Shown here in pieces: positions 3,365-20,520 of a stretch of 64,000 bases of DNA. The translations under genes were made by a program, and so were the position numbers. This DNA comes from Candidatus Latescibacterota bacterium (GTDB lineage: Bacteria > Latescibacterota > UBA2968 > GCA-2709665): positions 4,832,001 to 4,896,000 of the forward strand of contig OZ242358.1 in NCBI GenBank assembly GCA_965208835.1. Direction: 5' to 3'. The notes under the pieces are model-generated. The model worked only from the letters and a program-made list of their open reading frames with translations, searched no databases and was not told the origin of the DNA. Each line of letters starts with the position of its first letter. The stretch's first letter is position 1.

Positions 3365-4678
3365 ATGTCGATACTTGCGATTCTTCTACTTTTTGCCGTG
3401 GTGCTGCACGTTACAAGATCTCGTGCGTCAGCCGCTGATGTCACACTTGCAGCCGGCGCGGCAAGGACCGACGTCACACCCGATCCGGCGATGGTGAACT
3501 GGGTGGATGACAGACCCTACGACGGCGTTCTGGATCCGCTCGCCCTGCGGGGACTCGTTCTCTCGGACGGCACTACCGAGTTCGGCTTGATTTGCTGGGA
3601 CCTCATCGACGCCACGGAGGAGTGTGTCATCGACGTGCGCCGGGCGGTTCGGGACGCAACGGGCATCCCCGATTCGCATGTCCTCGTGGCCGCATCGCAC
3701 ACCCATTCCTCGCCCCGGTCTCCGTTTGCCCCATCCACGTTTACCGGCCGCAAGAGCGAACGGCTGAGAGCGATCCTGGACGATCCCGTCTTCGAGGCCT
3801 GGAGCCGGCGTCTGCCCGGACAATGCGCGGAGGTGCTGAAGCGCGCCCGCGACCGCCTGCAGCCCGTCACGATGAACATCGGCCGTGCGAATGCCTCGGA
3901 ATGGCTGTTCAACCGGCGGCCGCTGGATCCCGACGGCAACGTCGTTACGATGTTTCGGCCCGGCGATCCGCATTCGCTGCCCGACGGCCTGCGTTTCGGA
4001 TCGCTGGATCCCACCCTGACCGTCCTCTCCCTTCAGAACCCCGGCGGCGCAAACGTCGCAACGCTGTACAGCGTTCCCTGCCATCCCGTTTCCATCTATC
4101 CCTATCACCGCGGCGTCTCGGCGGACTGGCCCGGGCCGGCCAATGAGCGGATTTCGGAAGTCCTGGGAGGCGAGACCTTCTTCCTGCAGGGCTGCGCCGG
4201 AGACATCGTCCCGGCCGTTCGGGGAGAAGAAGCGCGCACGGAAATGGCCCGTTTCTTCGCGGAACGGGCCATCGCGGCGGCTGGGAATTCGCACTGCCTG
4301 CCGTCTTCACCGCTGAAAGTCGCTACCGGAATTGTCGGCTTGCCGCTCGTATCCGAAGCGCGAAACATTGCAGGCGCCGACATCCGGCCGGTCGAGATTC
4401 AGGTGGTCGTCTGCGGACCCTACGGCCTGGCCGTCCTTCCCGGAGAACCCCTCAACGGACTCGCGCGCGAGATTCAGGCGCGCTCACCGCTCCCGCACAC
4501 GCTTGCCATCGGCTATGCCAATGGGCGCGGCGTGAGCTACGTGGGACTTCCCGGAGAAAAAGCCAGGGGCGGATACGAAGCAGGGGCGGGACAGGGTACC
4601 GAAGAAGCCGGCGACTTTATGGTCCGGACCGCCGTTCGGCTTCTGCAGGAAACGGTTGACGGCACTTCAGAGGGTTAA
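3365..4678 (+). CDS. neutral/alkaline ceramidase-like hydrolase with signal peptide
   Basis: Hydrophobic N-terminus; AGAARTDVTP, SHTHSSP, NRR, CHP, QGCAGD, LPGEP and GGYE motifs; paralog of the upstream gene. Confidence 0.8.
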   Translation: MSILAILLLFAVVLHVTRSRASAADVTLAAGAARTDVTPDPAMVNWVDDRPYDGVLDPLALRGLVLSDGTTEFGLICWDLIDATEECVIDVRRAVRDATGIPDSHVLVAASHTHSSPRSPFAPSTFTGRKSERLRAILDDPVFEAWSRRLPGQCAEVLKRARDRLQPVTMNIGRANASEWLFNRRPLDPDGNVVTMFRPGDPHSLPDGLRFGSLDPTLTVLSLQNPGGANVATLYSVPCHPVSIYPYHRGVSADWPGPANERISEVLGGETFFLQGCAGDIVPAVRGEEARTEMARFFAERAIAAAGNSHCLPSSPLKVATGIVGLPLVSEARNIAGADIRPVEIQVVVCGPYGLAVLPGEPLNGLAREIQARSPLPHTLAIGYANGRGVSYVGLPGEKARGGYEAGAGQGTEEAGDFMVRTAVRLLQETVDGTSEG

Positions 4679-8350: not shown

Positions 8351-9352
8351 CTACTTCCACTTGAACACAACGCCCAGCGCATCTGTCGGATCGTCGGCGA
8401 GCATGGTGTAGATCTCCTGGCACTGTTCCGGATCCGCGACGTGGGTGATAAGGTCTTCTACCGGCAATTTGCCCTCGCCCATCAGGCGCATCACCAGCCT
8501 GCGGTCCCGTTCCTTCGCCCATCGGTAGTAAATGTGGTCGGCCTCCGGCGTCTTGGGCTGGTGGGCGCCCAGGATGCTGACTTCCCGCAGATGCACGTCG
8601 GCCAGAAAATCCATGTCGACGGTGCCGCGCGGGGAGCCCAGCGCAACCACACGGCCTGCCGTACACGCGAGCCGGACGGCGGTGGGATACACGGCGGGTT
8701 TGCCGGTCGCTTCGATGACGACGTTGACGCCGTCTTCCACGCAGTATTGTCCGACCGCGTCCCTGACGTCGTCCACGTCACCGGGATTGATACAGACGCC
8801 GGCGCCGCGGCTGCGGGCAATATCCAGGCGAAAAACGTCCAGATCCATGGCGATAACGGGAAGGGCGCCGGAGAGCCGCGCGAGGGTTGCCGCGAACTGA
8901 CCGACAATTCCCAGGCCGATGACGAGGACAACCTCGCCCAGTTCAATGCGCGCCACGCGGACTCCGTGGATGGCGATAGCGCCCATGACCATAAAGGCGG
9001 CGGCCCTGGACGACACGGAATCCGGGACCTTCACGTAGAAGGCCCTCCCGCCGTAGAGAATGCAATGGCTGGCGTGGTTACCCTGGCCGGCGACGCGGTC
9101 GCCCGGGCGGATGCCTTCAACGTCTTTGCCGACTTCCAGCACGGTGCCGACGTTGCAATACCCGGTGGCGCGGGGAAACCTTACGGGATTCCCGGGTTCT
9201 CCGCCGTGGGTCCATCCGTGGATCTCGGTGCCCACGCTGACGGCGGTGTACTCGTTTTCGAGAAGAATGCCGTCATCCGGCAAGGGCCCCGTTTCGAACG
9301 GTGCGACCTCCATCCGTCGAATACCGGGAATCAGGAGACGACTCGCTTTCAT
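8351..9352 (-). CDS. zinc-binding (MDR) alcohol dehydrogenase family protein
   Basis: SVGTE, GYCNVGTV, VLVIGLGIVGQ, VIEATG. ATG 9352 follows an AAGGA RBS; the longer ORF upstream is probably spurious. Confidence 0.88.
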   Translation of the reverse strand: MKASRLLIPGIRRMEVAPFETGPLPDDGILLENEYTAVSVGTEIHGWTHGGEPGNPVRFPRATGYCNVGTVLEVGKDVEGIRPGDRVAGQGNHASHCILYGGRAFYVKVPDSVSSRAAAFMVMGAIAIHGVRVARIELGEVVLVIGLGIVGQFAATLARLSGALPVIAMDLDVFRLDIARSRGAGVCINPGDVDDVRDAVGQYCVEDGVNVVIEATGKPAVYPTAVRLACTAGRVVALGSPRGTVDMDFLADVHLREVSILGAHQPKTPEADHIYYRWAKERDRRLVMRLMGEGKLPVEDLITHVADPEQCQEIYTMLADDPTDALGVVFKWK

Positions 9353-9438
9353 CTGTATGTCCTTTCGGGTGCTTGAAGACCGGCAGGTACCCGTATCAGC
9401 AGCGGATGCAGGTACCAGCCAGGGGCCGGGCGCGGTCT

Positions 9439-10476
9439 CTACGCCTGCCCGCGGTCCAGGGTTTGACGGAAGAGCCGAAGGAAGTTCCCTCCCCATACCT
9501 TTCGGATTTCTTCCTCGGCGAGGCCGCGAGCGAGCATGGCGCGGGTGAGGCGCACAAGCTTCGAGACATCCCCGAAAACAGGCGTCTTTGAACCCATGCC
9601 GTCGTAATCGGAACCGACGCCGACATGGTCGATGCCGACCAGGTCCGCCACGTGGCAGATATGGTCGACCATCCGGTCCACGGAAGGATTCTCCGGATCG
9701 ATAAACCCCGGGAGAAACGCGATGCCCATCACCCCGCCGACCCCGGCCAGCGCCCTGAGCTGATCGTCGGTCAGGCAGCGCCAGTGGTTGCAGACGGAGA
9801 AGGCCGCGGTGTGGGTCATCGTCACCGGGAGCGAAGACCGCTCCAGCACCTGGTAGAAAGCCTTGTCGTTTATATGGGCCAGGTCCGTGATGATGCCCAG
9901 CCGGTTGCTCTCCTCGAGTACGGACCTCCCGAAGTCCGTCAACCCGACGGCATTTCTGCGTTCGCGGTCGCGGTCTACAGGCGTGCACGGCCCGAAAGAA
10001 CTCCTGCTGCCCTGCAGCAGCGACGGGTCGTCGCCACCTTCGCCGTGGGTGATTCCGATACACCGAACTCCCAGACGGTAGTAGAGACGCAGTGTATCCA
10101 TTTCGCCTTCCAGCCAGCGTCCGGCGCCTTCGATAGTGAGCAGGATCCCGATTTTTCCGGATGTTCTTGCCCGTTCAACATCCCGTGACGAGAACACCAG
10201 CATCAGGTCGTCGGGATAAAGCTCCACCGACGCCAGGGTCTGCTCCAGGGTAACCCTGACGTTCGCCGTGGGCCCGTTACCGACCACGAAGAAGCCGGCG
10301 TCGAACCCGCCTTCCCGCATCCGCGGAATGTCCATGTGATACGCGAGGTCCCGTCTTTTCAGGTCCATGGGACGATCGCCCCGGTGTACGTGCTCCACCG
10401 GCGTGTCGTTGTGGCCGTCGACGATAAGGCAGCGGTCGTGTACCGCCTGCGCTTCTTCAAGGGTGATTTCCGGCAT
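9439..10476 (-). CDS. membrane dipeptidase (peptidase M19) family
   Basis: VDGHND, IEG, DLAH, TH..R, HVGVGSDYDG, GGNFLR. Confidence 0.92.
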   Translation of the reverse strand: MPEITLEEAQAVHDRCLIVDGHNDTPVEHVHRGDRPMDLKRRDLAYHMDIPRMREGGFDAGFFVVGNGPTANVRVTLEQTLASVELYPDDLMLVFSSRDVERARTSGKIGILLTIEGAGRWLEGEMDTLRLYYRLGVRCIGITHGEGGDDPSLLQGSRSSFGPCTPVDRDRERRNAVGLTDFGRSVLEESNRLGIITDLAHINDKAFYQVLERSSLPVTMTHTAAFSVCNHWRCLTDDQLRALAGVGGVMGIAFLPGFIDPENPSVDRMVDHICHVADLVGIDHVGVGSDYDGMGSKTPVFGDVSKLVRLTRAMLARGLAEEEIRKVWGGNFLRLFRQTLDRGQA

Positions 10477-10537: not shown

Positions 10538-11860
10538 CTACGGCGGATCGACGGGTACTTTCTGTCTCTTGCTGACCAGCGGATCGTATGTAAATCCGTC
10601 GGCGCGTTTTTCGAACTCCGCGCGCGCTTTTTTCAATTTCTCCGGGTCCCGGCACAGGTCGACAGCGCTCCCTGCGAAGACTTTGGCTGTCTGACGGACC
10701 GCGCGCTCGGCAAAGGGCAGGGCGGCCTGCGCAGCCATGTCCCGGTGGTGGCCTGGGGTTCCCTTCGCATAACAGACCATCTCGAAGCGTCCCAGAGGGG
10801 CCAGCCAGGATACGTTATCCTCGTCCGTAGATCCCCTGCCCTGCGAGCCGCTGCCCTTGGCGATCTTCGTGTTGAATCCCTTCTTGTAGCCGAGGGCTTC
10901 GGCGTGCTTCACGTCGGCTTCCGTCGGCTTGGGAGGCCCGAAAAGCTTGAGGTTCTTGCGGACGATCTCACACATCGCCTTGTTCGGCAGACGCGGGTAC
11001 ACGGCGGTGATTCGCGACCATTTCATCTTCGTATCCGTCGCCCTGGCGGCGCCCCGGGCGCAGGCGGTGAGGCGTTCACGCACTTCGTCGACCTGCGCGC
11101 GGTCCTTGCCTCGAACGAAGTACCAGATCTTGGCATAGGCCGGCACCACGTTGGGTGCGTCGCCTCCATCGCGGATCACGGAGTGGATCCTGACGTTTTC
11201 GGGGACATGCTCCCGGAGATAGTTGGCGGCGATATCCGTGAGCATCACCCCGTCCAGCGCGCTGCGGCCCCGGTGGGCCGACGCGCCGTGGGCGGTACGG
11301 CCGAAGAACTCATAGACGAGGGAGTCCAGCGACGACCCGCCGAAGTTGTTGACGCCCGAAGCATCGTCCGGATGCCACGCAAGGCAGACGTCCAGGTCCC
11401 GGATGGCGCCGTCGCGGGCCATGTACACTTTGCCTCCCAGGGTTTCCTCCGCCGGACAGCCATAATAGACGATCTTGCCCGGTGTTCCGGTTGATTCGAG
11501 GACTTTCGCAGCGGCGACCGCACCCACGGCCGGGGCAACGCCCAAGAGGTTGTGACCTCAGCCGTGACCCCATTGACCTTCTTCGGGGCCGCAGTTGGGC
11601 AGCGCGTCGTACTCCCCCAGCAGTCCGACCGCCGGTTCTCCGGTTCCCCTGGTAGCGCGAAATGCTGTGGGAATTTTCTTGAAAGGGAATTCGACCTCGA
11701 AGCCCCGTGAGGTCAGGTATTCCCCGATAGCCCGGGAGGACTTGACCTCGCGGAAGGGCCGCTCCGCCCAGCCGTGCACCTTCCTCGAAAGTACCCTTGC
11801 CCGTTTCGACTCGGCGGCGACGGCGCGGTTAACGAGACGCTTCTTTTCTTTTCCGGTCAT
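10538..11860 (-). CDS. M20 amidohydrolase (AbgB-like) with in-frame TGA at the metal-binding Cys; candidate selenoprotein
   Basis: Two track ORFs share one frame and are separated by a single TGA (11558-11560): GEYDALP..GHG*GHNLLG. Also GCPAEE, WHP, TAHG, GRSALD, PNVVP and GSTD motifs. Confidence 0.85.
11513..11542 (-). promoter_or_regulatory. candidate bacterial SECIS hairpin
   Basis: mRNA +16..+45 after UGA, GGCGUUGCCCC-GGCCGU-GGGUGCGGUCGCC, folds into a stem with two bulged U and an apical loop starting with G. Confidence 0.5.
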
Positions 11861-11967
11861 GTGAAATCTCTCTTGTGAACACCCGGATTCGCGAACGATC
11901 GGGTTGACGAAATCTCTCGTCGAGCGTACCGGCTCGAACACTTTCCCGGGTAATCAATCGATGGTTT

Positions 11968-13056
11968 CTACGGATGAACGATGGCATCCACGACCGCGTC
12001 GCCCACCCCGGTTGTCCCGGCGGCGCCTCCGAGATCGGCCGGGTGGTTCTTCGGATTCTCCAGCGCCCGATCGACGGCGCGGTCGATTGTGTCAGAGGCG
12101 GCGATGGCCTCCTGATCCTCATGGCGGGCGCCCAGCCAGGACAGCATCATCCCGGCGGAGAGGATCTGGGCCATGGGGTTGGCGATACCGTTCCCGGCGA
12201 TATCCGGCGCGGTGCCGTGGGATGGCTGGAAGACGCCGTAACGGTCGCCGACGTCGGCCGAGGGCGCCATCCCCATGCCGCCGATGGTTGCGGCGGCCAG
12301 GTCCGAGATGATGTCGCCGAACATATTCTCGGCGACGACGACGTCGTACCAGGAGGGGTTGCGCAACTGGTACACGGTAAACGCGTCCACATAGGCATAA
12401 TCCCGTTCGACGTCGGGATAGGATTCCGCGACCTCGTCGTAGATCTGTCTGAAAAACGCCATGCTCTTCAGAATGTTGGCCTTGTCGACGGAGGTGACGC
12501 GGCTCCTGCCGTCGGCGGGCGCCCCCTTCCGCTGCTTTGCGATTTCAAAGGCGTATCTGACGATCCGCTCGGTACCGGCGCGGGTGATGACCATGTTATC
12601 CACGGCAAGGCTGTCTCCAAGCCGGACCCCGGCGCCGCGGGAGGCGTAGAGGCCCTCGGTATTCTCACGCAGGATAACGTAGTCGAGCGGCGGATTCCCG
12701 TCCAGAAGCGGCGGCACGCCATGATATTTCTTGATTGGCCTGATCCCGGCGTAGAGGTCCAGTTCAAAGCGCAGCGTCAGTTGCGGCGCGATTTCAGTAC
12801 CGTCGGGGAAGCGGATGTCCGGGTCGCCGGCGGAACCAAAAAACACGGCGTCGGCCGCCTTGCAGGCGTCGAGCGTGGCTTTCGGGAGATCTTCTCCGGT
12901 TTCCGCGTAACACCCGGCGCCGACCGGATGCTCGGAGAAGGTGAAACGAAGATCGGGATGCGGCTCCTCGAGCGCCAGAAGCACTTTGAGCGCTTCCGCG
13001 ACGACTTCCGGGCCGACGCCGTCTCCTGGGAGTACGGCGATGTTGTACGTGGGCAT
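11968..13056 (-). CDS. isocitrate/isopropylmalate/tartrate dehydrogenase family protein
   Basis: IAVLPGDGVGPEV, RENTEGLY, DKANI, NMFGDIISD, HGTAPDIAG..ANP. Confidence 0.9.
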   Translation of the reverse strand: MPTYNIAVLPGDGVGPEVVAEALKVLLALEEPHPDLRFTFSEHPVGAGCYAETGEDLPKATLDACKAADAVFFGSAGDPDIRFPDGTEIAPQLTLRFELDLYAGIRPIKKYHGVPPLLDGNPPLDYVILRENTEGLYASRGAGVRLGDSLAVDNMVITRAGTERIVRYAFEIAKQRKGAPADGRSRVTSVDKANILKSMAFFRQIYDEVAESYPDVERDYAYVDAFTVYQLRNPSWYDVVVAENMFGDIISDLAAATIGGMGMAPSADVGDRYGVFQPSHGTAPDIAGNGIANPMAQILSAGMMLSWLGARHEDQEAIAASDTIDRAVDRALENPKNHPADLGGAAGTTGVGDAVVDAIVHP

Positions 13057-13080: not shown

Positions 13081-14235
13081 TCAGCGGGATCGCTGGCGAT
13101 CATCGATGCTGACACGGAATCCGCCCTCCGACTTCACGCCCCGTTCCAGCGCGTCCGGTTCGACGTCGAATCCCGCGCCGGGCGTATCGGGCACGATCAG
13201 CCTGCCGTTGCGCATCTGCCATCCGTCCAGGGCGATGCCCGGCAAGTCCGCCGGGGCCGCTTCCAGGAGGCTGTAGTTGGAAATGGAAGCGGCGAAGTGG
13301 GCGTGGGCGTATCGTTCGACGACACTTCCCCAGCAATGAGGGGCGCACTTCGCACCCCAGGGCCCGATTCGGTCCGCGGCGGCTTTCCACCACGTCAGCC
13401 CCTTGTAACGAAAATCGTGCTGCACGATGTCGATCCATCCACTTTCGACCATATCGAAGAAATCGGGCGGAGGCGGCCCGGACTCCCCGTCCGCCACGAG
13501 CGTATTGTAACCCTTCCGGTCAATCGCTTCCTTGAACGCCTCGTTGAACGCCCGGTCTTCCGGGAAGGGCTCTTCGAACCAATAGACTCCGGCGTCCCGG
13601 CAGCGTTCGAGGATGTCCAGCGCGATATTGAGCGTGGTTCCGTTGTTGGCGTCTATAAGGATTTTCGCATCCGGTCCCGCGGCCTCCCGGACCGCGTGGA
13701 TCACCAGCACGTCCCGGTCCGTTCCTTCCCGGACGGGCATCCACCGCGCGCCGCGCCCGATCTTGATTTTGAAATTTCGGTAGCCGTAATCGTGCCCGGT
13801 TCGGACTTCCTCTCGGAAGATCCGCCGCGCCTGGTCGTCGGTGGCTCCCAGATCGTCGATGTAGACGGAGCCGTCGTAGAGTTCGACTTCCCGGGAACCG
13901 CGCGCGCCCAGCAGTCGATAGAGGGGCACGCCTTCACATCTGGCGGCCAGATCCCACAGGGGAAGGTCTATGGCCGCGCCATCGCCGGTTGACCCGACCG
14001 GAAATTGAAAAAGCTCCGGGGGGCGCATTCCGAGAAGTGCTTCGGCGCGCGCCCTGTCAAGGGTAGACCAGCCGATGCCCACGCCGCCGCCAGCGGTGCC
14101 GATGCGCACGACCGGATCGGTGACCGCCGGACCGTGTACGCCGATACGCGCGTTGGATCCGATGTTGCGCGGGCGCGTGCCGTGCAGGACCGCCTTTTCG
14201 ATTATGACGATGGGATCGGAGAATGAGCCGCACAT
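13081..14235 (-). CDS. mandelate racemase/muconate lactonizing enzyme (enolase superfamily)
   Basis: DLPLWDL, FKIKIG, IDAN, WFEEP, ADGE, PGAG. Confidence 0.88.
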   Translation of the reverse strand: MCGSFSDPIVIIEKAVLHGTRPRNIGSNARIGVHGPAVTDPVVRIGTAGGGVGIGWSTLDRARAEALLGMRPPELFQFPVGSTGDGAAIDLPLWDLAARCEGVPLYRLLGARGSREVELYDGSVYIDDLGATDDQARRIFREEVRTGHDYGYRNFKIKIGRGARWMPVREGTDRDVLVIHAVREAAGPDAKILIDANNGTTLNIALDILERCRDAGVYWFEEPFPEDRAFNEAFKEAIDRKGYNTLVADGESGPPPPDFFDMVESGWIDIVQHDFRYKGLTWWKAAADRIGPWGAKCAPHCWGSVVERYAHAHFAASISNYSLLEAAPADLPGIALDGWQMRNGRLIVPDTPGAGFDVEPDALERGVKSEGGFRVSIDDRQRSR

Positions 14236-18441: not shown

Positions 18442-20520
18442 TCACACGGTACCCAGGCTCTTCAGGATCTTCGCGAAAACGCCGTCGGTATCCGTCTTCA
18501 ACTCGATCTGGGACAGTCGCTCCAGGATCCGCCCTTGCGGATCCACCAAAAAGTACGCCGGTATCCCGCGAACATTGTAGTCGCTGGCTGGTCCGGAACC
18601 GGAGACCCCGGAGCGCACGTGCACGCCTTCGATCCCGTGTTCCTCGATGGCCTTGCGCCATGCCGCCTCGTTCGAATCCAGTGAAAGGTTGAGGAAAACC
18701 ACCGGTAGATCGGTGGTCTTCTTCTTCAATTTCCGGATGTGCGGCAAGTTGGCGATGCAGGGACCGCACCAACTCGCCCAGAAATCCAGCAGCACCACCT
18801 TTCCCCTGAACTGGCTCAAAGACACGGGTTGTCCGTCCAGGTCCCTCAATGTGAAATCCGGCGCCGGACGGCCCGGCCGCAGCGCCATCGCCTTGTCCAG
18901 AGCCGCCAGTACCGCCGCGTTGTATTCCGGATAGGGGTTGGCCGCCTGGAATTCCCTCCACATACGGTTGACGGCCGCAAAGCTCGCCCCTCCGCGCTGA
19001 AAACCGCTGATCAGCTGTCCGGCCAGAAACCAGTATCGCACCCGCCCCTTCAGTTTCTCCTCGGCCAGATCGAACCTGCGTGGAAGTGCCGGTATCGACC
19101 GTCTCTTGATTGCATAGATCGAGTCGAGCTTCGCCTCCATCGCCTGCGACAAACCCAGGCCAGCGAGATCGAGGATTTGAGACAACCTGAGCGGCTGTCG
19201 ATTTTCGTAAAGTGAATCCAGATAGGCGCCATTCTCAGTGGATAGACCCAATCCCGCCAGATCGACCATATCGGACAACTTGCGTTTCCTTTTGAAGGAG
19301 CGCAACCCTTCCATTCCACTCGCGCCATCCTTCGCCGGTAGCCGGAAAACAAGCGCGCCGCTCGTGGTGTCTATCTCGGGCTCTTGGAGTTTGCTTGACG
19401 TGGTAATTCTGTACGATCCATCACTCTTCGCGTAGAAGGAGTCGATCTCTGCCCGGGCCGGTTCCGACAGGCCCATTTTCTCCAGGTCAAACATCTGAGA
19501 AAGGTTGGGTCTCCCTCTGCTGGCGTACAATGAGTCGAGTCTGGTTTCGACCGCGGCTGACAGACCCAACGTTGACAGGTCGATCATCTTCGACAGGCCG
19601 GGATGCCACCCGAACCGCGCATAGAGTGAATCCAGCACGGTGAGAGTCTCCTTCGACAGTTCCAGGCTTGTAAAATCGTACAAGTCCGACAGCGTTTTCG
19701 ACCTGGGCATCTTCATCATTTCCAGATCCATTGTCCTAACCAGGTAGGTTGCATATGGATCCACACCGATCGCCTTCTCGTCCACCAGCGGGATCTGTCT
19801 AAGGAAGTCATAGAATTCAGGTGGGATATTCTTGTTCTCCCGGCCTGTGGCGCGCCGGTAGTTGGCAGAGTATGAGATCTTCAGGAAAGCGTACGTGTAG
19901 TTGAAATAGCGTTCCACATGTTCGATGAATCCCGGCGAGAACGCGTATCTCGTACGTCGCCGGTCCAGGAATTCAAGCTGGTCCGCGCGCCATCCGTCCG
20001 CCAGGCGAGAAAAGTCTTCCGCCTCCATTTCCCTGGAATCCCTGATTTTACGCTGGAATTCCCCGAACCTGGGGTACCACTCGGCAATAAAGCGGCTGTT
20101 GTCCGCATTCCTGCCGCTGAACCGGTAGGAGGTAGAAAGATGGCCGGGATGGATCCTGATATGCAGGCTGTCGCCGGGCTCGACAAACAGCACCAGCGGA
20201 CTGCGTTTGACGACGTACGACGCGGCCTGCCGGGCCCATTTCCACGGGACGCTTCTGCCCTTGTAGCTTCCCCGTACAAGTGTTCCGCGAACAACTGGAA
20301 TCTCCAGCGCGAAGCGGTTCCGGCTGTCCAGGTCAACGCGCTGTTCGGTCTGTCTCCCCAGCGCCGTCGGCGAGTTGTACCTGAACGTGATTTCCCGTGC
20401 GGTCGGGTTCCGGACTTCACCCGTGACAATCGCGACCGACGACTCGCTGCCTTCCGCCGCCGGACCGGCAGTTGACATTGCGAGTATGGTGACGAGGATA
20501 AGTCTGGATATATTCTCCAT
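18442..20520 (-). CDS. exported TlpA/ResA-family thiol:disulfide oxidoreductase with long N-terminal region
   Basis: Signal peptide; C-term APDFTL..GKVVLLDFWASWCGPC..GIPAYFLVDPQG. Confidence 0.88.
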   Translation of the reverse strand: MENISRLILVTILAMSTAGPAAEGSESSVAIVTGEVRNPTAREITFRYNSPTALGRQTEQRVDLDSRNRFALEIPVVRGTLVRGSYKGRSVPWKWARQAASYVVKRSPLVLFVEPGDSLHIRIHPGHLSTSYRFSGRNADNSRFIAEWYPRFGEFQRKIRDSREMEAEDFSRLADGWRADQLEFLDRRRTRYAFSPGFIEHVERYFNYTYAFLKISYSANYRRATGRENKNIPPEFYDFLRQIPLVDEKAIGVDPYATYLVRTMDLEMMKMPRSKTLSDLYDFTSLELSKETLTVLDSLYARFGWHPGLSKMIDLSTLGLSAAVETRLDSLYASRGRPNLSQMFDLEKMGLSEPARAEIDSFYAKSDGSYRITTSSKLQEPEIDTTSGALVFRLPAKDGASGMEGLRSFKRKRKLSDMVDLAGLGLSTENGAYLDSLYENRQPLRLSQILDLAGLGLSQAMEAKLDSIYAIKRRSIPALPRRFDLAEEKLKGRVRYWFLAGQLISGFQRGGASFAAVNRMWREFQAANPYPEYNAAVLAALDKAMALRPGRPAPDFTLRDLDGQPVSLSQFRGKVVLLDFWASWCGPCIANLPHIRKLKKKTTDLPVVFLNLSLDSNEAAWRKAIEEHGIEGVHVRSGVSGSGPASDYNVRGIPAYFLVDPQGRILERLSQIELKTDTDGVFAKILKSLGTV

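Follow-up and report, generated by a model that had tools for sequence, protein, structure and literature searches.

A probable selenocysteine codon at the invariant cysteine position of an M20D-type amidohydrolase gene in Candidatus Latescibacterota

Does a lone TGA within an otherwise complete amidohydrolase gene end translation, or does it encode selenocysteine (Sec)? We addressed this question for a gene on the minus strand of a 64 000-nucleotide stretch of Candidatus Latescibacterota DNA (hereafter the window; assembly GCA_965208835.1, contig OZ242358.1, positions 4,832,001 to 4,896,000). A sequence-only reading of the window had proposed that one frame interrupted by a single TGA encodes a protein of 440 aa, and the open reading frames (ORFs) and their translation bear this out. 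ORFs 11558..11941 and 10538..11545 (both minus strand) are the two halves of one frame, split by the lone TGA in the context GGT CAC GGC TGA GGT CAC AAC CTC TTG, and translation from the ATG at 11860 through the UGA yields 440 residues with U101 within GHGUGHNLLG. The complete coding sequence, of M20D/TIGR01891 amidohydrolase type, spans 10538..11860 on the minus strand and consists of 440 codons, including the one UGA, and a TAG stop, with the ATG at 11858..11860. The in-frame UGA is codon 101 (11558..11560, minus strand), and by sequence and alignments the proposed Sec stands at the invariant Cys of the family. On comparative sequence grounds, we consider it very probable that this codon encodes Sec and that the gene is a conserved, genuine selenoprotein gene.

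The mechanism that we infer, for Sec insertion, metal ligation by Sec, binding of a hairpin by SelB and the substrate alike, would run as follows. A full-length M20D-type metal-dependent amidohydrolase or dipeptidase would be made by UGA read-through, with UGA 101 decoded as Sec by the SelA/SelB/tRNA-Sec/SelD system of the organism. Decoding would be directed by an RNA element located 15–43 nt 3′ of the UGA. This element is most probably a pair of adjacent hairpins, the second of which would be bound by SelB at its RGGY tetraloop. In the resulting enzyme, a selenolate-bridged binuclear metal center would activate water for amide hydrolysis.

The TGA was found to recur throughout the close relatives of the gene. 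Among 41 related genomes, all of the 37 with a match carry exactly one TGA. A search of 168 genomes of Candidatus Latescibacterota gave a match in 80; 55 orthologues at 67–100% identity each contain exactly one TGA, and the genomes with this form fall in three family-level groups (f1, f2 and f4). No stop was present in the match of genome G154 (67% identity) or in 27 matches at 45% identity or less. When 50 loci were fetched, the TGA was at the same column in 38/38 Sec forms, the codon was TGC in G154, and 11 distant forms had TGC or TGT. A metagenome scan in which TGA, TGC and TGT were all allowed covered 80 loci of 87 stretches, with 28 TGA, 47 TGC and 5 TGT codons. Alternation of TGA and Cys codons at column 101 among homologues, for which a check had been proposed, is therefore seen with both codon types present.

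We also scanned one genome for each of ∼185,000 species with the degenerate pattern G-H-[GA]-TGA-G-H-[NH]-L-x-G. This gave 57 matches, 52 of which are this same orthologue and largely overlap the phylum genomes, so that they are not independent of them. Matches L075, L096, L102 and L114 were rejected as chance hits with no similarity to the protein. A Priestia megaterium assembly (L078:5492-6707) contains an M20D homologue with TGA at the same motif, spread over three frames with further stops; this is a broken gene or a poor assembly and serves as a negative contrast. Several Sec-form contigs with the same block of the proposed selenocysteine insertion sequence (SECIS) are labeled Gemmatimonadota or Gemmatimonadetes (L073, L077, L087, L091, L107, L113 and L119) and one is labeled Planctomycetota (L079). 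These labels may be outdated or wrong, since the contigs hold an orthologue otherwise seen in Latescibacterota genomes.

The region directly after the UGA is constrained at synonymous sites. Synonymous codon entropy averages 1.21 bits across 50 unique Sec-form genes. Among all 8-codon windows of the gene, codons 107–115 have the minimum, 0.22 bits, and none of the 12 lowest-entropy windows extends outside codons 99–122. For codons 107–114, the values are 0, 0.63, 0, 0.39, 0, 0.21, 0.14 and 0 bits in 52 unique Sec forms, compared with 1.71, 1.76, 1.70, 1.37, 1.72, 1.35, 1.70 and 1.82 bits in 50 unique Cys forms, the latter counted only where the same amino acid is encoded. At codons 102–105, the Sec and Cys forms are alike in synonymous entropy. 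In five Cys forms, the G[VT]APAxGA peptide is the same but many third codon positions differ, and because these same-peptide forms vary, the frozen codons 107–114 belong to the TGA and not to the protein. The conserved downstream RNA element for which a check had been suggested is thus kept only in TGA forms. A metagenome contig with TGC (L132) matches the Sec-form element over ∼60 nt downstream except at about four third positions of codons, and may be a recent Sec-to-Cys conversion still bearing SECIS remnants.

To describe the proposed SECIS, we numbered its positions from the U of the UGA as nt 1. In the comparative fold it consists of two abutting hairpins. Hairpin 1 (GGGC-NNN-GCCC, nt 18–28; 11533..11543, minus strand) has four pairs that are invariant in 50/50 sequences and a loop that varies (GUU, GUA, ACA), and it is contained in the minimum free energy (MFE) fold of 16 of the 18 unique elements. 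Hairpin 2 (nt 29–46; 11515..11532, minus strand) has a 7-bp stem, CGGCCGY/GCGGYCG, and an RGGY loop at nt 36–39; SelB of E. coli and Moorella binds a GGUC-type loop. In hairpin 2, 99.7% of cells are paired, and one pair occurs as G-C, as G-U and as A-U (3 sequences), besides one A-C mismatch. The two-hairpin arrangement is returned by RNAalifold and by 16/18 unique 31-nt elements (15 in full and 1 partially), and 99.8% of its cells are paired over 50 sequences, with variation located in loops or preserving pairs, including U-G/C-G. Of 52 Sec forms, 51 can pair both hairpins throughout, whereas none of 50 Cys forms can. The legend of Fig. 2 in a review of prokaryotic selenoproteins (PMC13188914) describes a bacterial SECIS (bSECIS) by a loop of 3–9 nt, an upper stem of 4–16 bp, a G in the first two loop positions, a distance of 16–37 nt from the UGA and an MFE of −7.5 kcal/mol or lower. 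Hairpin 2 lies within all of these bounds, with its 4-nt RGGY loop, 7 bp, 32-nt spacing and −9.3 kcal/mol.

Two other hairpins had been put forward from the sequence alone. The stem-loop at +16..+45 is indeed predicted by RNAfold in the sequence of the window as a long stem with 12 pairs, bulged U39 and U44 and a GCCG loop (11513..11542, minus strand), and it too falls within the bSECIS bounds, with the loop ∼27–28 nt after the UGA and −16.1 kcal/mol. The conserved fold, however, is the two hairpins: only 2 of the 18 unique elements have the long stem as their MFE fold, 92.2% of its cells are paired, and its apical C-G pair is lost in 34/50 sequences. The hairpin overlapping the UGA, GAGGU-CACA-ACCUC, is likewise predicted but not conserved, its inner pair being lost in 35/50 sequences and its outer pair in 10/50. 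Judged from these comparisons, the two adjacent hairpins are most likely the functional fold.

The machinery for Sec is encoded in the genome of the window (G000; 5.18 Mb, one contig, 59% G+C), where selA, selB, selC and selD, which the sequence-only reading had named as genes to look for, are all present. Outside the window, selA, selB and the tRNA-Sec gene lie side by side (loci L001 and L006; G000:C1:3536430-3539724, minus strand), with the tRNA-Sec gene adjoining selB and with scores of 483 bits for SelA and 361 bits for SelB. Also outside the window, selD (locus L013; G000:C1:4401300-4402223, plus strand; 359 bits) itself holds one in-frame TGA near the N-terminus, SelD being a selenoprotein in its own right. 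The SECIS of selD is a CAGUCC-GGUC-GGACUG hairpin with its loop 17 nt after the UGA. It resembles the proposed element in its G+C-rich stem of 6–7 bp, its 4-nt loop containing GGU and its location within the coding region after the UGA, but it has no counterpart of the extra invariant mini-hairpin that precedes the loop-bearing hairpin in the M20D gene. The comparison was made with this one other SECIS of the organism because a heuristic scan of G000 for further genes with in-frame TGA was too noisy, giving 429, then 766, then 17 candidates, with selD absent from the final list. One scan candidate (G000:C1:3605923-3607572, minus strand), possibly a further selenoprotein gene, consists of 390 and 159 codons joined by TGA (VLQDAG-U-ASPCTG), and 15 nt downstream there is an 8-bp hairpin. 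Across the phylum, SelA (E ≤ 1e-60) was found in 131/168 genomes. The count is 54/55 for genomes that carry the TGA form, and 0/2 for genomes of the genus of the Cys orthologue G154 (86% and 90% complete).

Among the alternatives, the one that survives best is that suppression or a changed code places Trp, Cys or Gly at the UGA, and it is already very improbable. Some uncultured bacteria do reassign UGA. In this genome, however, TGA serves as the most frequent ordinary stop (it closes 2090 of 3886 stop-to-stop frames of at least 300 codons), 4 of the 10 genes checked around the locus terminate with it, and no internal in-frame TGA was found in the other 9, in agreement with the earlier claim that a global reassignment of UGA is excluded. 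Furthermore, the tRNA-Sec is the only tRNA with anticodon tca found in the genome, the TGA form tracks SelA, and the downstream element agrees with the SECIS model.

In public databases, the proteins called for the Sec forms are shortened to 294–336 aa and start at differing, non-homologous start codons (P0015, P0043, P0053, P0055, P0060, P0068, P0075, P0085 and others). The public call for the gene of the window sits in a 329-aa protein cluster, and a 320-aa relative is named ‘peptidase dimerization domain-containing protein’ by NCBI. That gene callers report C-terminal ORFs, together with a TTG 4 codons after the TGA (ORF 10538..11545), could be taken to indicate a split gene, in which a 100-aa N-terminal peptide and a C-terminal protein of ∼335 aa assemble without Sec. 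We rate this slightly lower than a standard amino acid at the codon: the H-x-C-G-H metal motif would be cut in two, with loss of the invariant Cys, and the restart is not conserved, 34 of the 52 unique Sec forms having CTG at codon 106 and 18 having TTG, and the database calls starting differently (e.g. MGAVAAAK, MLGVAPAAG, MQQNKLKGK and MARDGAF). A split would also leave unexplained both the RNA element that is frozen only with the TGA and the link with SelA. With Sec at codon 101, the gene is mis-annotated in public records, where it appears as a shortened protein of 320–336 aa, and the family and its SECIS could enter selenoprotein annotation pipelines.

The frozen nucleotides might instead serve a purpose unrelated to decoding, such as a small RNA, a protein-binding DNA site or codon bias, for which the chances appear lower again. 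The covariation is not strong enough to establish an RNA structure, and the folding energy of the single sequence is no better than chance, with z = −0.73 for the 31-nt element (48/200 shuffles as stable) and z = −0.57 for an 86-nt stretch; the support for the fold comes from comparison with relatives. Against such a purpose, the constraint covers no more than about 10 codons immediately following the UGA, it is missing from the five Cys forms with the same peptide, the variable positions lie in loops or keep the pairs, and hairpin 2 taken alone is more stable than shuffled sequences (z = −2.76; 2/200 as stable).

The diversity at codon positions 1, 2 and 3 is 0.205, 0.147 and 0.515 in the 95 codons compared upstream of the UGA and 0.163, 0.106 and 0.490 downstream, and the start codon is 98–101 codons 5′ of the TGA in 15/15 Sec forms examined. 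The gene is intact, with purifying selection on both sides of the UGA. Twenty sequencing runs were listed for this DNA, all in the form of Logan contigs and none of them from RNA. In the Logan contigs of four of these (X1, X5, X6 and X8), which drop rare variants and of which X1 may be the source sample, contigs assembled from sequencing runs of two other studies span the site, with no difference at 11558..11560 among the matches listed. In run X6, one contig has a joint skipping 11429..11593, with a 20-nt side. The shortened public calls and the truly broken Priestia homologue show how a sequencing error or a recent nonsense mutation, with a TGA that simply stops translation in a pseudogene, might be imagined, but this retains almost no probability because 55 genomes assembled separately, with identities as low as 67%, and 28 metagenome contigs share this TGA, without the other stops or frameshifts of the Priestia case, and with the upstream codon-position diversity and the start codon maintained as described above.

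The read-through protein was then placed within the M20 enzymes. It scores 183.5 bits against NCBIfam TIGR01891 ‘amidohydrolase’ over residues 25–373 (curated cut-off 153.75) and matches Pfam M20_dimer (PF07687; E ≤ 0.001). An AlphaFold2 model built with 25 aligned sequences has a predicted local distance difference test (pLDDT) score of 91.8 and a predicted template modeling (pTM) score of 0.90, and Foldseek places it in the two-domain M20 fold with HmrA (3RAM) as the best match (E 3e-35, TM 0.82/0.92), next PM20D2, and then CsAga (6SLF), ILL2 (1XMB), YxeP (1YSJ) and an AbgB-like protein. HmrA, an M20D peptidase/aminoacylase of Staphylococcus aureus, is also the best sequence match (E 2.5e-40 with the single protein and 2.8e-98 with a profile), and the same G-H-x-C-G-H-N motif aligns with U101; HmrA differs in having Cys, in its identity of 26–27% and in being ∼45 residues shorter than the protein of the window, which has an insert around 310–340 and a C-terminal tail. 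PM20D2, the human cytosolic beta-alanyl-lysine/Xaa-Arg dipeptidase (7YH4, 8ZEI), ranks second by both sequence and fold (profile positions 9–430), but it is eukaryotic, with Cys in the motif and 24–25% identity, and its substrate is not simply transferable. AbgB (p-aminobenzoyl-glutamate hydrolase subunit B, 3IO1) belongs to the same superfamily and is the Joint Genome Institute (JGI) name for several relatives at 57–73% identity; the 3IO1 match is, however, far weaker (E 4.6e-25) than that of HmrA. The AbgB name is probably a transferred label. Neither a second M20 gene (AbgA) nor an AbgT-type transporter was found among the ten genes scanned around the locus in the window.

Column 101 is Cys in all of the 104 full-length database relatives (at least 400 aa, 55–76% identical) and in 5/5 solved relatives (3RAM, 7YH4, 8XZC, 1YSJ and 3IO1), where U101 aligns with the Cys of GHACGHN in HmrA (3RAM) and PM20D2 and with the Cys of MHACGHD in YxeP (1YSJ) and 3IO1. 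Positions U/C101, H103, E138, E139, H163 and H371 are invariant in the 25-sequence alignment, and we take them, by analogy with the family and from the statement of a review on CsAga, to be the metal-ligand and catalytic set. According to that review, Cys bridges two zinc ions in M20D (CsAga), while the bridging ligand of M20A enzymes is Asp (PMC11511702). Column 101 would correspond to the metal-bridging Cys of CsAga, since it is the sole Cys column invariant across the alignment, and a selenolate-bridged metal center is proposed because Sec occupies the invariant Cys position of the family, which is bridging in M20D according to the review. The protein had previously been described as AbgB/Acy1-like with a Cys metal ligand; the Cys motif does align, but the comparison with Acy1 is loose because M20A uses Asp (PMC11511702). 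Two further candidates for comparison were rejected: Sapep (PMC2937973), the cysteines of which form a regulatory disulfide and are not active-site residues, and the protein of PMC12017989, a TIM-barrel amidohydrolase outside M20.

Several observations weigh against Sec at codon 101 or against parts of the proposed mechanism. The genomes compared are related, so the counts above are not independent events, and one genome (G032; 91% complete, 430 contigs) carries the TGA form without a detected SelA. With regard to the RNA element, the MFE fold of the window's own sequence is the long stem and not the two hairpins. As the element hardly varies, covariation is weak, and both partners change at a single pair (3 sequences); the covariation score of the two hairpins was reached by 42/500 shuffles (56/500 in another run), and that of the long stem by 500/500. 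The loop of hairpin 2 is 32 nt from the UGA compared with 17 nt in selD, which is near the top of the bSECIS range. With regard to the protein, the Pfam catalytic-domain model PF01546 gave no match at E ≤ 0.001, a model that is precomputed for many relatives at 55–72% identity, and the metal-bridging role draws on the statement about CsAga and not on a residue-by-residue mapping.

Nearly all characterized selenoproteins are oxidoreductases, and redox chemistry is the usual explanation for the use of Sec over Cys. Sec as a metal ligand, which the sequence-only reading had regarded as unusual in a non-redox hydrolase, is known from FdhA (Mo/W-Se) and from F420-reducing hydrogenase subunits, where the main text of a 2026 review describes Sec coordinating the catalytic metal, UGA with a SECIS and Cys homologues (PMC13188914). 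What is unusual is the hydrolase setting: those proteins are redox enzymes, whereas M20D is a hydrolytic binuclear fold in which no change of oxidation state is expected in the metal or its ligand. For ∼20% of selenoprotein families, the same main text gives a predicted capacity to bind atoms or moieties, which are mostly metals and include Zn, so that metal ligation by Sec already has precedents (PMC13188914). Sec in a hydrolytic M20 center, on the other hand, appears to be new. The review counts >110 prokaryotic selenoprotein families and calls its own inventory the most comprehensive, and its main text mentions none of the terms peptidase, hydrolase, amidohydrolase or M20; the main text on BSepDB gives 111 families (PMC13326102). 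An M20, peptidase or amidohydrolase selenoprotein family is not named in the main texts, supplements being outside the search, of PMC13188914, PMC12013277 (deep-Sep), PMC13326102 and PMC9312934, nor in those of PMC2398784, PMC1976440, PMC1088965, PMC5658510, bioRxiv 10.1101/2022.07.06.499078 and bioRxiv 10.1101/2021.03.15.435355, and full-text searches of the literature brought up no pertinent report either. A genome note on Campylobacter avium (PMC5658510) was rejected as a report of an M20 selenoprotein, as the words ‘selenoprotein’, ‘M20’ and ‘amidohydrolase’ merely co-occur in it.

A bolder interpretation, which we offer tentatively and hold to be rather less than an even chance, is that this protein would be the first natural metallohydrolase with a selenolate-bridged binuclear center, in which Sec is kept for a non-redox reason: a tuned metal affinity or selectivity, Lewis acidity, or a bridging ligand shielded from irreversible oxidation in oxic habitats. 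The SECIS would then possibly represent a distinct composite class, with two abutting hairpins that are both required and a SelB-binding loop 32 nt from the UGA. If this is true, Sec in place of a metal-bridging Cys would extend selenium biology to a non-redox metal site. The benefit of Sec outside redox catalysis is directly testable because natural Sec and Cys orthologues exist at ∼67–76% identity.

The evolution of the Sec form was followed in a FastTree phylogeny of 196 unique proteins (69 Sec and 127 Cys) with column 101 masked and the root placed on distant Cys forms. Loci with fewer than 90 residues before or 320 after the codon and database proteins shorter than 430 aa were left out, as were 17 full-length proteins missed by the motif regular expression, all of which proved to be Cys forms when checked later. 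The Sec forms are all in one clade (support 92), which also holds three Cys proteins (P0004, P0005 and P0009), the sister groups of this clade have Cys, and at least 3 state changes are required. We read this pattern as one Cys-to-Sec gain followed by two reversions, a reading that depends on the root and on a quick tree.

In the window, the gene belongs to a series of co-directional minus-strand genes in the order MR/MLE, Iso_dh, M20D gene, M19, Zn-dehydrogenase, flavin reductase, SSF symporter and GFO/IDH/MocA oxidoreductase. Upstream are a gene of the isocitrate/isopropylmalate dehydrogenase family (11968..13056, minus strand; Pfam PF00180, 306.4 bits), present in this position in 22/46 Sec-form loci with enough flank, and, further upstream, an enolase-superfamily (MR/MLE) enzyme (13081..14235, minus strand; PF13378, 130.2 bits), present in 12/36. 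An M19 membrane-type dipeptidase (9439..10476, minus strand; PF01244, 271.7 bits) follows downstream, directly so in 14/54 loci, and then a zinc-binding dehydrogenase (8351..9382, minus strand; PF00107), which is the most conserved neighbor and was found downstream in 33/41. The ten genes scanned near the locus were MR_MLE, Iso_dh, M19, Zn-ADH, flavin reductase, SSF symporter, GFO/IDH/MocA, SMC, redoxin and one without a family. This neighborhood suggests catabolism of a small amide, for example a dipeptide or an acylated amino acid, and by analogy with the neighbors and with the relatives, which are dipeptidases or N-acyl-amino-acid amidohydrolases, a dipeptide or an N-acyl amino acid is the probable substrate.

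Elsewhere in the window, a 437-aa ORF (3365..4678, plus strand) had no Pfam match at E ≤ 1e-5 and may not be a real gene in a genome of 59% G+C. A 692-aa protein is encoded at 18442..20520 (minus strand); no Pfam family matched its long N-terminal part, its gene ends in TGA without an internal one, and it carries a C-terminal redoxin/AhpC-TSA/thioredoxin-like domain.

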